Positions 46,478 to 57,058 are shown, counted from the first letter of the stretch. The stretch: 64,000 bases of DNA from an uncultured Eubacteriales bacterium (GCA_949288185.1 CASEIZ010000065.1:4962-68961), one strand, 5' to 3'. The notes: generated by a model not told the origin, from the letters alone. Made by a program: numbers and translations.

Positions 46478-46480
46478 GAA

Positions 46481-46520
46481 GAAAGAACTGGGCTGATGAT
46501 AGTCAAGTTCTTTTTTTATT
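46481..46520 (+). terminator. Terminator after tRNA-Pro
   Basis: aaagaact...agttcttt hairpin followed by a T-run. Confidence 0.55.
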
Positions 46521-46552
46521 TCTTGTAATTATATACAAGGAGAAACAAAACA

Positions 46553-47236
46553 ATGAGGATTTTAGAATTTATTTTAAGTAAAAAAGAATATTTAGAAGAT
46601 TTCATTACAAGAAGTACATATCATTCAAATGCTATTGAGGGTAGCACACTTACCTATGCGGAAACTTATGCTATTCTATACAATGATAATAGCTTTAAAA
46701 TCGAAGGAAAAGAGCCAAGGGAAATATATGAAGCTATAAATCATAAAAAAGCATTAGAATTAGTTTTTAAGAATTTACAAAGTAATGAAGAATTTAATGA
46801 AAGATTTATAAAGGAATTAAATGAGACGATAAATAGAGATATTAAAGATACAGAAGGTTATCGAATTGTGCAAGTATTTATTCAAGGTAGTGAACATATT
46901 CCACCTGAGCCTGAAAAAGTTCCAAATTTAATGATGTATTATATGTATAATTATAATCATGATGAACAAGATATTTTTACTAAAATTGCTAAATATCATA
47001 TTGATTTTGAAAAAATACATCCTTTTGAAGATGGAAATGGAAGAACAGGTAGATTGCTTATAAATTATGAATTGCTAAAAAATGATTTACCACCTGTTGT
47101 TATAGCTAAAGAAGATAGGGTAAAGTATTTTGAATTTTTAAGAAATAATGATAGTAATGGCTTAGCTGAATGGCTAAAATATTTATCTACTAGAGAAGAA
47201 GAAAGAATGGAGAAGTTTGGATATAAACAAGTATAA
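46553..47236 (+). CDS. Fic-family protein (AMPylase type) with an N-terminal inhibitory-helix-like motif
   Basis: Fic motif HPFEDGNGRTGR. The N-terminal SNAIEG fits the (S/T)xxxE(G/N) motif. Confidence 0.85.
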   Translation: MRILEFILSKKEYLEDFITRSTYHSNAIEGSTLTYAETYAILYNDNSFKIEGKEPREIYEAINHKKALELVFKNLQSNEEFNERFIKELNETINRDIKDTEGYRIVQVFIQGSEHIPPEPEKVPNLMMYYMYNYNHDEQDIFTKIAKYHIDFEKIHPFEDGNGRTGRLLINYELLKNDLPPVVIAKEDRVKYFEFLRNNDSNGLAEWLKYLSTREEERMEKFGYKQV

Positions 47237-47260
47237 TACAAAAAAGAAGGAGTGATAATT

Positions 47261-47626
47261 TTGAACATATATGTTGCACATTCAAATAAATTTGATTATA
47301 TAAAAAAATTATATGAACCGATTAAAAATGCTAAATCTTTATCAATACATAATTTCTTTTTTCCTCATGATGAAGTAAATAAGTTAGTAAAAACAAAAGA
47401 GATAATAAAAAATTATGATTTAGTTATTGCAGAAGTATCTTTACCGGCTACAGGACTAGGTATAGAATTAGGTTGGGCAGATGACTCAAGCACGCAAATA
47501 TTATGTATACATGAAAAAGGGTCAAAAATTAGTTCATCTTTGAAATTTATAACAAATAATTTTATTGAATATGATAATTCAAAAGATTTGATAGAAAAAA
47601 TAGAGAAATTTTTAAATAGTTTATAA
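47261..47626 (+). CDS. Nucleoside 2-deoxyribosyltransferase-like small Rossmann-fold protein
   Basis: N-terminal IYVAHS strand and ATGLGIELGWA (a conserved Glu in a GxxxExGxA context, as in NDT-family proteins). TTG start 8 nt after AAGGAG. Confidence 0.4.
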   Translation: MNIYVAHSNKFDYIKKLYEPIKNAKSLSIHNFFFPHDEVNKLVKTKEIIKNYDLVIAEVSLPATGLGIELGWADDSSTQILCIHEKGSKISSSLKFITNNFIEYDNSKDLIEKIEKFLNSL

Positions 47627-47652
47627 ATTAATTAGAAAGGAGATAAGATAAA

Positions 47653-48072
47653 ATGAGAAATTTATTAGTAGTTGCAGTAATGATAAAATGTAAAGATAAA
47701 TATTTATTCATAAAACAAGATAAAGTAGGGGGTGCTTTTTCAGGTTGTCTACTTACAGTTGGTGGAAAGATAGAAGAAAATGAAACTCCAGAAGAAGCAA
47801 TAAAAAGAGAAGTATTAGAGGAAGTGGATATAAAATTAGATAAAGTAATTCCTTTTGATTTTGATAGTGAAATAACAATGTATAAAGGAGAAGAAACTCA
47901 ATTAATTTCACTAAGATATACATCAGAAGTTAATAATTTTTATGCAAAACCTGGATCGGATGCTAAAGAAGTATTTTGGCTAAAAAAAGATGAATTACTA
48001 AAATATAACCAAAATCCAATGACAAAAAGATTTTTATATAAACTAGGTTTGATATCTAAAGAAGATATATGA
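47653..48072 (+). CDS. NUDIX hydrolase
   Basis: Nudix box GGKIEENETPEEAIKREVLEEVDI. Confidence 0.85.
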   Translation: MRNLLVVAVMIKCKDKYLFIKQDKVGGAFSGCLLTVGGKIEENETPEEAIKREVLEEVDIKLDKVIPFDFDSEITMYKGEETQLISLRYTSEVNNFYAKPGSDAKEVFWLKKDELLKYNQNPMTKRFLYKLGLISKEDI

Positions 48073-48077
48073 AAGAT

Positions 48078-54222: not shown

Positions 54223-54455
54223 AATAAATCACTTTCCTTTCTTAACGGATAAGTTAAGTTGAAAAAATCTCAAAAACATAATGATTTTTCCACCTAACAA
54301 TATTCGTGGTTTCGTATAATTCAATGTTACTATGTCTTATAAAAAAAGTAAACCGATAATCAGTTTAGTTTTCTCGACTATTAGTTTACTTATAGTAGAA
54401 TTGAAAATCATCTATTGAAAAGATAATTTGCAATGTTAATTTTACGATATTATTT

Positions 54456-54722
54456 TTACATGACACTTTTAGACAATTTTTTTATTCTTATTATAGAAAT
54501 AATAAGAATGATAATATCTATTAGTAGAGGAATTCCAAAAACATATAGGTAAAGGCATAGACTTACCCAAACATGTTGAAACCAGTAAAATATGGTAACA
54601 CCAAAAATATCATCATAATAATTACCAACTAAAAACCCATTTATTATAATATATCCTGCAAATATAATGAAACATACTAATATAGCTAAAGTAATGTTTC
54701 TAATAATTTTCCATTTCTTCAT
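54456..54722 (-). CDS. Small 3-TM membrane protein, unknown function
   Basis: Hydrophobic 88-aa ORF. Confidence 0.45.
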   Translation of the reverse strand: MKKWKIIRNITLAILVCFIIFAGYIIINGFLVGNYYDDIFGVTIFYWFQHVWVSLCLYLYVFGIPLLIDIIILIISIIRIKKLSKSVM

Positions 54723-54968
54723 AATAATAAATCCCCCTACAATTTAACATATATTTATTAGAATTATATCATTAAGAAAAAGAGGATTCAATATTCCTCA
54801 ATACAAATTGCCATAACAAAACAAATTGTAGAGTTGCATCAAGGGAAAATTTATGTTAAAAATGATAGTGAATATATAGAATTATAAAGTATTTAAGTGA
54901 AAACTAATTAAAAAAGAAAGCATACAGAGGTTAAATTAACTTTAAATTTATGATATGAGGTGAATGCT

Positions 54969-55511
54969 ATGGGAAAAGTATTAAAGGTAAGAGAAGTAGG
55001 AGACCCTATCTTAATAACAAAATGTGAAGAAGTAGAAATACACCATATAGATGAATCTATTATAGAAATCATAGAAGATATGAAAGAAACTCTGAATTTT
55101 ACAGGTGGATTTGGAATAGCAGCTCCACAAATAGGTGTCAATAAAAGAATTATCATTATACAAGTGGAAAAAGATAAGTGTACCTATCAAGATTGTGAGG
55201 ATATCCCAACAACAGTTATGATAAATCCTGTTTGGAGAAAATTATCAGAGAAAACTTATGTGGAATATGAAGGTTGTCTAAGTGTACCATCTGTTAGGGG
55301 AAAAGTGGAAAGATATCATGACATAGAAATTATCTATTATAATGAACAAGGAGAAAAAATAACAAAGCAAGTTCATGGATTTACAGCAAGAGATATTCAA
55401 CATGAATGTGACCATTTAGATGGAATTGTATTCTTAGAAAAAGTAAATATGCATAATGGATTCGCAACAAAAGAAATGATAAATAAATATAATTTGAAGG
55501 GGGATTTGTAG
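54969..55511 (+). CDS. def: Peptide deformylase (island-borne copy)
   Basis: The three PDF motifs GFGIAAPQIG, EGCLSVP and HECDHLDG. GAGGTGA lies before the ATG at 54969. Confidence 0.85.
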   Translation: MGKVLKVREVGDPILITKCEEVEIHHIDESIIEIIEDMKETLNFTGGFGIAAPQIGVNKRIIIIQVEKDKCTYQDCEDIPTTVMINPVWRKLSEKTYVEYEGCLSVPSVRGKVERYHDIEIIYYNEQGEKITKQVHGFTARDIQHECDHLDGIVFLEKVNMHNGFATKEMINKYNLKGDL

Positions 55512-55578
55512 ACTTTAATGTCATTCTGCATTATATGAGAAAGACTACAAAAATGGAATAAAAAATAAGGCATATACT

Positions 55579-55932
55579 TTATTTTTTATTCCTAAATAAA
55601 TTATCTATATTATATTTTTTTCTAAGATCTTCTTCGATTTGAAATTGCATGTCCTTTAAAGTTTGTGCATCTCGCATTTGCATTTGTTTTTTTTCTTCAT
55701 CTGAACATAAATAATCTCTCCATATAAGTGAAATGATACCTAGAGTTTCATCCATAAAGGTTTGTTCTTCTATGGGAATTGTTTGGTCTAAAAGAAAAAA
55801 ATAATTTATATCCATATTTTCTTCTATGAAAGTTAAGAATTCAATAGGAATTTTTTTTCGAACATCATCATCAATAGATTTTAATATCATGTAAACTTCT
55901 TTAAAAGCTTTTCCATAATTTTTTTTATCCAT
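55579..55932 (-). CDS. Small partner protein (long member of the family at 51716..51940)
   Basis: See the alignment above. The C-terminal extension is RDAQTLKDMQFQIEEDLRKKYNIDNLF. The ATG at 55932 overlaps the upstream stop (ATGGATAA). Confidence 0.65.
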   Translation of the reverse strand: MDKKNYGKAFKEVYMILKSIDDDVRKKIPIEFLTFIEENMDINYFFLLDQTIPIEEQTFMDETLGIISLIWRDYLCSDEEKKQMQMRDAQTLKDMQFQIEEDLRKKYNIDNLFRNKK

Positions 55933-57032
55933 GTATTTCTTCACCTTCTTTAGATTTTTCTATAATTCTTTTAGAAAGTTGAATTTCTTTTAGGTCACTC
56001 ATAGCAGAAACTCTAAAATTCTCACCTTTGGATGCTAATAATCTTATTTGAGATTCAGATGTATTGTATTTATTACCTCGTATGTCAGAAAAATAGGTAA
56101 CATTTTCTTGCCCATAGCGTAAAGTATTGTGTAAATGCATTTCGTCAAAAATAAGAAGTTCTTCAGGTGTTTTTATTTTAGGTGCTAATGCGCAAACAAA
56201 AAAGGCCGAATCAAAAATCATGTATCTTCCATTTTTCTCAATACAATTGAAATGATGATCTTCTTTTTGTCCTTTACTATTAAATGTTTTTCCTTGAATC
56301 ATAAAAGTATTATAACCTAAGAAAGATAATACATTTTGAGACATGAGAGCATATTCAGTACATTCCCCAATATTTAATCCTTTAATTGCACTTATCGGAA
56401 TAGGAATTATCCCACCCAAATTTTCATTTTCATAAATTTGATTAACTAAATCCTGTCTTTCAGTAATATTTTTTTGTTCTAGATAATATTGTTTTAATCT
56501 TTCGCCAAAATCTTCTCTTATATAAGTATGGCTTTTTCCTTCTTTAAGCATTTGTTGAAATACAATCAAACTATCTTTATTTGGTTGTGCTGATGAGAAA
56601 TAATGTCTAATACCATTAATTAAATTACCGCATCTGTAATGCATTGATTTGTTTTATTTCTGATACATGATTGCGTATATATGAATCAATAAGAATTTTG
56701 AAAATTTCTTTTTCATCCATCCAATAACAGGTGGTATCTATTAGTCCAAAACCTATTTTTTCATCATCGCTTATAAATCCTTGAATAAAATTCTTTTTAC
56801 TACTGTCGGAATTACGTTGCATATTCTTTTGATATTCTTCAGAATTTAAATACTCTAATCTTTCTGCAACAATATTTTCTGTGGATTTTTCGTTTTCAAT
56901 TTCTTGTATCAATCCTTGTAAATCTAAAAACATTTTTTTAAATTCCTTTATATTTATTAAAAGTCGAAAATTATAAAATATTAAATTCTTAACTTTTAAT
57001 AATATTTTATCATTATTTATACTTTTTTGCAA
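55925..57032 (-). pseudogene. Transglutaminase/papain-like Cys-His-Asp enzyme, annotated as two ORFs that fuse by a +1 shift at the terminal CGG (56630-56628)
   Basis: ORF 56625..57032 ends ...INALQM-CGG-TAA. Skipping the C reads GGT AAT TTA..., which is GNLINGIRHYF..., in frame with ORF 55925..56644. Candidate triad NIGECTEYALMSQNVLSFLGY ... EDHHFNC ... MIFDS. The start may be the ATG at 56933. Confidence 0.45.
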
Positions 57033-57058
57033 TTACAATGAAAATTTTCGAAAAAGTA

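Follow-up and report, generated by a model that had tools for sequence, protein, structure and literature searches.

Probable decayed mobile elements accreted at a tRNA-Pro gene in an uncultured gut Clostridia genome

In Firmicutes, integrative and mobilizable elements (IMEs) integrate into the chromosome, decay to cis-mobilizable elements (CIMEs) that keep their attachment (att) sites, and are joined by further elements through accretion (Guedon et al. 2017, PMC5704250). The accretion model was drawn from ICESt1/3 of Streptococcus thermophilus (PMC5704250). Here we compare with these elements a 10.6-kb interval (46478-57058) between the genes for tRNA-Pro and tRNA-Gly in a 64,000-nt stretch of DNA (GCA_949288185.1, CASEIZ010000065.1:4962-68961). 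This whole stretch is called the window, and its positions are used throughout. The DNA comes from an uncultured gut Clostridia/'Eubacteriales' bacterium whose 2.05-Mb genome of ~28% G+C is labelled G000; the window lies on its 71-kb contig C65. Relatives identified by name are human-gut metagenome-assembled genomes (MAGs); the closest relative is G041 (96% identical). It is likely, with a probability of roughly 0.8, that mobile elements integrated here one after another by site-specific recombination at the 3' end of tRNA-Pro(UGG), and that the interval is a recombination hotspot with their decayed remains.

Two other described systems are relevant to the genes of the interval. SoFic is a toxic AMPylase that acts by abortive infection (PMC12249575), and the validation of a SoFic-type Fic protein against coliphage T5 is cited in PMC11514479. 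The Panacea domain (DUF4065) represents the hyperpromiscuous antitoxin domains (Kurata et al. 2022, PMC8832971; Ernits et al. 2023, PMC10440598).

The complete IME at this site is proposed to have the order core, iterons, RepA_N, oriT, MobV, cargo, HTH_17 (xis-like), tyrosine integrase, core. In the window, two tandem remnants without an integrase would be left. Element A (46478-48161) would be the cargo end (Fic, DNPH1-like and Nudix genes and a P arm) of an IME type that keeps its integrase and relaxase elsewhere, and would now be a CIME between two cores. Element B (48162 to ~51714) would be a RepA_N/MobV IME cut after a 310-bp block, with its cargo, xis-like gene, integrase and attR gone. 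To its right would lie an older variable stretch with two independent cassettes of an enzyme and a small partner, an XRE regulator with transmembrane (TM) segments, membrane proteins, a deformylase and tRNA-Gly. The remnants would be mobile only with an integrase and a conjugative helper in trans. The nearest integrase of the same genome (30-37% identity) is in an IME-like element on contig C42 and may be such a helper.

The units at this site share with MobV IMEs and CIMEs the site-specific integration at a tRNA 3' end, with duplication of that end, and the combination of a MobV relaxase and an oriT (here an oriT-like region) with no mating apparatus. They also share the tandem arrays of related units, in which integrase and transfer genes are lost and att cores are kept. 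They differ from the reviewed MobV IMEs in the addition of a plasmid-like replication module, a RepA_N theta-type initiator with iterons, and in their host, an uncultured low-G+C lineage of gut Clostridia. The RepA/MobV unit of the window has a relaxase and an oriT-like site and no integrase of its own, which makes it a decayed IME. Element A retains attL and attR and has lost the integration and transfer genes, as a CIME does, and its mobilization in cis is predicted. Element B has lost its attR core too, and thus is not a proper CIME.

The first-pass annotation regarded the combination of protein-modifying enzymes in the interval as unlike any described system. Accretion of a CIME and a decayed IME at a tRNA gene is a described phenomenon (PMC5704250), and, taken as a whole, the island is an ordinary though instructive case of accretion and decay. 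It illustrates how a mysterious arsenal without recombinase may arise: small RepA_N/MobV IMEs integrate serially at a single tRNA gene, their integrase ends are deleted, and toxin- or defence-like cargo is stranded in the chromosome. The IME family, with a tRNA-Pro target and arrays of up to three units, appears abundant in human-gut Clostridia, and its architecture is itself of a known kind. The locus also supplies candidates for study: a compact class II Fic protein, a sequence-orphan family of ADP-ribosyltransferases (ARTs) with the R-S-E motif, and a small partner family associated with many unrelated enzymes.

Attachment cores and tandem elements at tRNA-Pro

The gene for tRNA-Pro(UGG) is at 46402-46477 on the plus strand (ARAGORN, Rfam), and its final 12 nt (46466-46477, TCACCTCGACCA) form the att core (attL). 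This 12-mer is present in exactly two copies in the 2.05-Mb genome, against 0.026 expected; the second copy is at 48150-48161. Homology to G041 (96%) and to G015 and G013 (83%) begins exactly at 48150. In these relatives, tRNA-Pro abuts RepA there, without the Fic cassette, so the Fic/DNPH1-like/Nudix segment is an extra unit between two cores. Element A has a core on either side and codes only for these three proteins. Its right end (48078-48161, plus strand) is composed of a paired TGCATTCA motif (48078-48101), a P arm (48102-48149) and the second att core.

Complete tRNA-Pro IMEs, also in tandem arrays, are found in relatives and in human-gut metagenomes. The element of G041 is complete. 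After the 310-bp block it continues for 4.3 kb with three cargo open reading frames (ORFs; DUF3800, DUF6076 and one unassigned), an HTH_17 xis-like protein and a 435-aa integrase (PF00589, 4e-35). It ends with an attR core 28 bp before p74, the gene that lies next to element B in the window. These 4.3 kb correspond to only 72 bp in the window. On one contig of G020, four cores at ~52.3, 41.3, 32.3 and 22.5 kb, ~10 kb apart, delimit three units, each with an integrase. Two of the three have the order core-RepA_N-MobV-...-integrase-core; the third contains a replication organiser, a MobA/VirD2 relaxase, an integrase, XRE-Fic and a 587-aa ORF with a p121-like gene. G003 has two units of the tRNA-Pro element type. 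In G021, the tRNA end recurs as an exact 23-nt repeat on either side of a 4.3-kb insert. This insert encodes XRE regulators and a tyrosine integrase (PF00589, 1e-24), and beyond the distal repeat is a Fic remnant.

The metagenome scan for the core and P' arm junction returned 26 human-gut contigs. Upstream of the junction is tRNA-Pro in 16 of them and an integrase end or P arm in the other 10, which represent the junction either of a tandem array or of an excised circle. One metagenomic locus (L075) has the layout of the window, Fic...P arm-core-RepA-MobV, with an integrase still upstream of Fic. These comparisons indicate that the 12-nt 3' end of tRNA-Pro is the probable attachment site (attB) for a family of 8-11 kb IMEs, frequent in this genus of gut Clostridia.

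Six-frame searches found no tyrosine or serine recombinase (PF00589, PF00239) on the whole of contig C65, as the first-pass annotation had reported for the island. Because a tyrosine integrase is present in sister elements at this site, the absence is best explained by secondary loss. The suggestion that a mosaic accessory island with att-like repeats grew stepwise at tRNA-Pro is supported by the relatives and by the rarity of the 12-mer; the interval is not conserved core genome.

Element B begins with the P' arm and iteron-like repeats (48162-48420, plus strand; an 11-bp unit repeated 3.9 times at 48253-48295 and a 10-11-bp unit at 48324-48352). They are followed by the 315-aa RepA_N replication initiator (48421-49368, plus strand; Pfam RepA_N 1.2e-22, PHROG DnaD-like loader 2e-33). 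Copies of this RepA_N, 75-95% identical, adjoin tRNA-Pro in relatives and metagenomes. The oriT-like region (49380-49530, plus strand) has three inverted repeats and an AGTGTG/TT motif, a candidate which we take to resemble the nick site of the pMV158 family. The 417-aa MobV (Mob_Pre) relaxase (49550-50803, plus strand; Pfam Mob_Pre 1.3e-42; terminator hairpin at 50817-50850) shares ~30% identity with the MobV proteins of mobilizable plasmids of 3-7 kb from Firmicutes. No type IV secretion system-type Pfam domain was present among the ORFs scanned, and megablast of the island against PLSDB plasmids gave no match.

After MobV, a small gene with a cupin motif (HGHDNQWE; 50887-51270, minus strand) is interrupted by a premature TAG at 51031-51033. 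It is intact (~123 aa) at the same post-MobV position in six metagenome contigs, with Glu where the stop stands, so the nonsense lesion is real. Read through the TAG, the gene matches no Pfam family. Thus the pseudogene part of the earlier call stands, while its cupin fold is without database support. The gene is within the G+C-richer patch, read as foreign DNA (33% at 51000-51499, against ~25% for the interval), and is one of the two interrupted genes of the island, the other being the split p135/p239 gene described below. Both observations agree with the first-pass annotation.

The conserved 310-bp backbone block (51335-51644) was found by sequence comparison. It is 95% identical in G041 and 75-93% identical in G014, G023, G005, G015 and G013, and the element of the window breaks off just past it. 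The block sits after MobV and contains two hairpins and a 54-aa ORF (51508-51672, minus strand); it has no Rfam or Pfam match. It is followed by a second paired TGCATTCA motif (51691-51714, plus strand), which matches 48078-48101 at 23 of 24 positions. These are the only two copies of the 24-mer in the genome, and they flank the RepA/MobV module. The 24-mer is a candidate arm-type recombinase site, since in L025, L033 and G020 it is found without any intervening plasmid, next to p74- or p121-like genes and at 50-100 bp from att cores. Its right copy in the window would have outlasted the deletion of the adjacent core.

Extent of the elements and competing explanations

The first-pass annotation placed the island between tRNA-Pro and tRNA-Gly. 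The genes do lie there, but the right edge of the variable region is farther out. Synteny with G013, G016 and G021 resumes only at ~58816, so tRNA-Gly(UCC) (57108-57181, plus strand; ARAGORN, Rfam) is inside the variable region and not at its border. Among the relatives compared, only G041 and G012 have tRNA-Gly. Between tRNA-Pro and the p498 oxidoreductase gene lie as little as 2.3 kb (G016) and as much as 12.3 kb (window). The emptiest version of the site (L023, G016:C16) encodes, at 9468-10813, a 301-aa membrane-anchored protein and a 101-aa GIY-YIG-like protein. Where synteny returns, a ~75-bp repeat (58749-58827) is present; it has more than 15 copies genome-wide.

A possible though less favoured explanation is that everything to the right of ~51715 (the ART pair, XRE regulator, small membrane proteins, deformylase, tRNA-Gly and small ORFs) is ordinary lineage-specific chromosome, the island being only 46478-51714. 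The position of attR in G041, just before p74, leaves all of these genes outside the element. A deformylase homologue of the island type is present in most congeners, and XRE-p88, the deformylase, tRNA-Gly and 57335-58715 are conserved at 87-95% in G041. Three relatives (G013, G016 and G021), however, are without the entire stretch between tRNA-Pro and the p498 oxidoreductase, the 2.3 kb of G016 containing unrelated genes. In addition, the third unit of G020, a bounded IME, is arranged likewise (core - motif - p121-like ... XRE - Fic - P arm - core), and at least four further insertions or deletions distinguish G000 from G041 here.

It is rather improbable that the RepA_N/MobV segment is a ~3.6-kb plasmid that recombined into the chromosome at the 24-nt site TTACTGCATTCAAT(A)TTGCATTCA and thereby created the 23/24 direct repeat. 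The 12-mer at 48150 would then be the unrecombined attP of the plasmid, and Fic, the DNPH1-like gene and Nudix older chromosomal DNA. The paired motif, present only twice in the genome, does bracket the module exactly. The junction at 48102-48175 has the layout P arm-core-P' arm, which is found without tRNA in G023 and L075, and Fic begins 75-94 nt past the tRNA-Pro core in both G000 and G021. The plasmid origin is opposed by the three loci named above (L025, L033 and G020), where the right motif is accompanied by 48 nt of 'inside' sequence (51643-51690) next to p74/p121-like genes in the absence of any plasmid, as fits an arm-type site. Moreover, G041, G015, G013 and 16 metagenome contigs have the same RepA/MobV backbone integrated via the core and together with an integrase, and no free circular form was seen: none of the metagenome contigs has a terminal overlap.

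The third explanation, that Fic, the DNPH1-like protein, Nudix, ART, the transglutaminase-like protein and the deformylase belong to one coherent system, undescribed so far and serving as toxin, effector or anti-phage arsenal, on a single island, is very improbable and largely refuted by the comparative data: although everything is inside 10.6 kb, three proteins match PADLOC models and catalytic residues are kept, G041 retains the backbone without the Fic cassette and the transglutaminase trio and with a diverged ART (56% aa identity), Fic homologues with 75-88% identity occur without the other modules in five congeners (G004, G012, G020, G032 and G033), the ART pair occurs in other contexts (L025-L028), the transglutaminase-like pair follows addB or AAA_14 genes elsewhere, homologues of the DNPH1-like protein and Nudix are unlinked to Fic in G021 and G014, and the genes are on both strands in separate transcription units, one of them frameshifted. 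Fic, the ART pair and the transglutaminase-like pair are each found alone elsewhere, which argues that their co-location is due to accretion at the hotspot.

Several points weigh against serial integration and decay as the explanation. There is no core in the window at the right end of element B, and its truncation point (51644-51714) is placed by comparison only. The order of events cannot be reconstructed, and Fic may or may not once have belonged to a complete IME of this lineage; in G021, too, a Fic remnant stands directly past a core. The 23/24-nt repeat around 48078-51714 could mark a different integration route. The sole conspecific contig found (L065) shows 0 mismatches to the window in 20.7 kb; it is essentially the same sequence, shows no strain-level polymorphism and gives no independent support for the gene lesions. 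As to function, PADLOC PDC matches are candidates only, and the functions are predicted. Fic is far below the cut-off of the NCBIfam SoFic equivalog (47.8 vs. 550 bits, with profile positions 91-255 of 361 covered) and lacks the SoFic C-terminal domain.

Enzymes of the interval

The gene contents listed in the first-pass annotation were largely confirmed with Pfam, family profiles and AlphaFold2 (AF2) models searched with Foldseek. Fic, NUDIX, RepA_N, Mob_Pre, HTH_3 with TM segments and Pep_deformylase are backed by Pfam. PHROGs gave no match for any uncharacterised protein of the interval, and Rfam detected only tRNAs in it. Genetic code 4, considered because of the 25% G+C, was ruled out, as the ORFs are complete under table 11. 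Catalytic residues are retained on alignment, a test named in advance. The idea of a toxin or defence arsenal survives in that several enzymes match defence-candidate models, namely Fic, Nudix and the ART core; the idea that Fic, ART and the transglutaminase-like protein form a single system does not, each module occurring without the others in relatives.

The class II (AMPylase-type) Fic protein of 227 aa (46553-47236, plus strand; Pfam Fic 4e-21) has the motif HPFEDGNGRTGR at residues 156-167 and the N-terminal inhibitory SNAIEG at 25-30. It matches PADLOC PDC-S04 over its full length (1.3e-63) and SoFic at 4e-34. It resembles SoFic/PDC-S04 in the HxFx(D/E)GNGRxxR motif, the (S/T)xxxE(G/N) motif of the N-terminal inhibitory helix, the full-length PDC-S04 match and the location on mobile DNA. 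Unlike SoFic, it is short (227 vs. ~361 aa), and it is followed by the gene for the 124-aa DNPH1-like enzyme, not by that for a 47-aa AS1-type antitoxin. It is probably an auto-inhibited AMPylase of the SoFic/PDC-S04 abortive-infection type.

The next gene (47252-47626, plus strand) was assigned by family profile to the DNPH1/Rcl-like proteins of the nucleoside 2-deoxyribosyltransferase superfamily; its 124-aa product has GIELG with the catalytic Glu72. The protein itself has no match in Pfam, and a single-sequence search of the Protein Data Bank (PDB) gave DNPH1/Rcl with an E-value of 0.003, over the catalytic 'GxELG' segment. A 35-member profile of the family matches DNPH1 at 2e-8 and CMP N-glycosidase at 1.8e-5. 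PF05014 is matched by 25 of the 35 members, Glu72 is invariant, and the family has 335 cluster representatives at E<=1e-10. The label of nucleoside deoxyribosyltransferase-like protein in the first-pass annotation was therefore sound.

The 139-aa Nudix hydrolase (47653-48072, plus strand; Pfam NUDIX 3e-12, PADLOC PDC-S07 1.5e-14) matches NudI- and MutT-like models below cut-off. Its Nudix box (GKIEENETPEEAIKREVLEEVDI) departs from Gx5Ex7REUxEExGU only in the final Gly, replaced by Asp. Because of the known activities of both families, Nudix and the DNPH1-like enzyme could act on nucleotides in succession, from dNTP to dNMP to base and deoxyribose-5-P. Fic, the DNPH1-like gene and Nudix were considered as a conserved trio and rejected, because the latter two are unlinked to Fic in the relatives named above and the genes 3' of Fic differ in G020 and L075.

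The ART cassette (51716-53155, minus strand) consists of p402 (51947-53155), assigned by motif and AF2 model to the R-S-E ART fold, and p74 (51716-51940). Searches of Pfam and the PDB by sequence gave nothing credible for p402, its homologues have no annotation, and tblastn found no match in phage records. Only 20 close homologues were found. R178, S199xS201 and E240xE242 are invariant in 20 sequences, with [IV]LLPPF after E242. The AF2 model (mean pLDDT 76, core 85-97) places the motif residues on strands 174-181, 198-202 and 242-245, as expected for an ART. In Foldseek, it matches C3-like, CDTa and iota Ia ARTs (E ~1e-5, probability 1.0), and phage or viral ART domains too, so the earlier assignment as ART-like is borne out. 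Residues 143-253 match PADLOC RTas1808 (2.7e-18).

Compared with the known R-S-E ARTs (C3-like exoenzymes, enzymatic components of binary toxins and phage Alt/VIP2-like proteins), p402 has the same fold, with a TM-score of ~0.6 to C3-size domains, and the Arg/Ser-x-Ser/Glu-x-Glu triad on beta1, beta2 and beta5. Unlike them, it has no detectable sequence similarity, has an extra conserved N-terminal helix, a disordered linker and a long C-terminal helical domain, and is without signal peptide or binding component; its gene abuts a small partner gene, as in toxin-antitoxin (TA) pairs. The family is confined to gut Clostridia MAGs and two Saccharibacteria MAGs, the latter with homologues at 37-40% identity. 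The cassette (~1.6 kb, 88% DNA identity; 79-95% conserved) is in other contexts in the four MAGs of L025-L028, and in L028 it is on the opposite side of the tRNAs. Some homologues are longer (~660 aa) and carry an additional domain of ~260 aa at the N-terminus, in which kinase-like motifs (GNFDSHGSHFL...CCDKEQAF) are found.

The second cassette (55579-57032, minus strand) was recognized by homologue comparison. It contains a Cys-His-Asp gene of putative transglutaminase fold, split into p135 (56625-57032) and p239 (55925-56644), and then p121 (55579-55944). The ORFs of 135 and 239 aa overlap by 20 nt; every homologue is a single ORF of 324-330 aa. The transglutaminase/papain-like label is upheld in part. 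The Cys, His and Asp columns are conserved in at least 90% of the p239 family, and the top Foldseek matches are all of transglutaminase fold (TglA, PeiP/W, NAT and vasohibin); these matches are weak (E 0.015-0.3), Pfam gave a sub-threshold NAT match (0.0012), and the PDB gave nothing credible by sequence. An intact gene with a p121-like gene is present in G017 and at unrelated loci in other gut bacteria. At the split (56625-56644, ...ATG CGG TAA), a +1 shift after the rare CGG codon aligns gap-free to intact homologues. The 239-aa form belongs to a cluster of 34 member sequences, and the split form is thus widespread or repeatedly sampled. The split could be a programmed frameshift.

The second peptide deformylase of 183 aa (54960-55511, plus strand; Pfam 6e-48, NCBIfam 1e-47) retains GIAAPQ, EGCLS and HECDH. 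The canonical def-fmt pair is on contig C39, so the island gene is indeed an extra copy. Homologues of the island type (73-77% DNA identity) are present in many congeners, off the tRNA-Pro contig in G016 and G020; an exact-product look-up gave no record. The remaining genes are p81 (53393-53638, plus strand) and p88 (54456-54722, minus strand), whose translations have hydrophobic segments indicative of TM proteins, and an XRE-HTH regulator with two TM segments (53827-54222, minus strand; Pfam HTH_3 2.8e-17). XRE-p88 is 91% conserved in G041.

The p74/p121 partner family and neighbouring sequences

The p74/p121 family is the most interesting and unusual point of the locus, and it is a lead worth following. 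The two small proteins are paralogous (E 1e-9) and share an N-terminal domain, 'EVYxILKxxxxxxxxKIP'. The gap to the upstream enzyme gene is 7 nt for p402-p74 and -19 nt for p239-p121, and both pairs are conserved as units elsewhere. Because each enzyme precedes a small paralogous partner, the two pairs resemble TA modules, which suggests such a function for them. A hidden Markov model of the N-terminal domain detected 14 copies in the genome. Twelve of them have an upstream ORF on the same strand at -34 to +185 nt, and all 12 partners are mutually unrelated. The identified partners are the ART, the Cys-His-Asp enzyme, a deformylase-HAD fusion, a CoaE-like kinase and an Amidoligase_2 protein; the remaining 7 of 12 are without an assigned domain. 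In all DNA examined, 23 partners fall into 16 clusters. The pairs are located on IMEs and among housekeeping genes alike.

The association of 12 copies with 12 unrelated proteins suggests a promiscuous antitoxin-like partner. It is conceivable, though we hold it only tentatively, that p74/p121 is a new hyper-promiscuous partner domain of gut Clostridia, serving as antitoxin, immunity protein or chaperone. Like Panacea, one small-protein family would form two-gene operons with many unrelated, mostly enzyme-like partners across the chromosome and mobile elements. Unlike Panacea, p74/p121 has no Pfam or PDB match, and no sequence relationship between the two was shown; its operons have the partner enzyme first and the small gene second. 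Moreover, several partners (deformylase-HAD and amidoligase) are not classical toxins. The family has no relative in Pfam, PHROG or PADLOC and no credible one in the PDB. The RalGDS RBD, the sole PDB match of the profile (E ~0.007), was judged spurious. Should the partners be toxins that this one fold neutralises, the system would be Panacea-like and its toxin classes new. The deformylase-HAD phosphatase fusion (605 aa; C73:21757-23999), followed by its p121-family gene, contains the third deformylase-type domain of the genome.

Upstream of the interval is tRNA-Arg(ACG) (46150-46226, minus strand; ARAGORN, Rfam). The block to its left (40163-46053) encodes an extracytoplasmic function (ECF) sigma factor, a DUF4179 protein and an ABC-2 transporter. 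This block is absent at this site in G041. A copy with 84% identity is on contig C42 (24734-37215), flanked by a MobV homologue and a 421-aa tyrosine integrase, indicating a second IME-like element. Farther to the left, between htrA and an M23 peptidase gene, a palindromic repeat of ~307 bp (38000-38305) resembles miniature inverted-repeat transposable elements and has more than 25 full or partial copies on many contigs.

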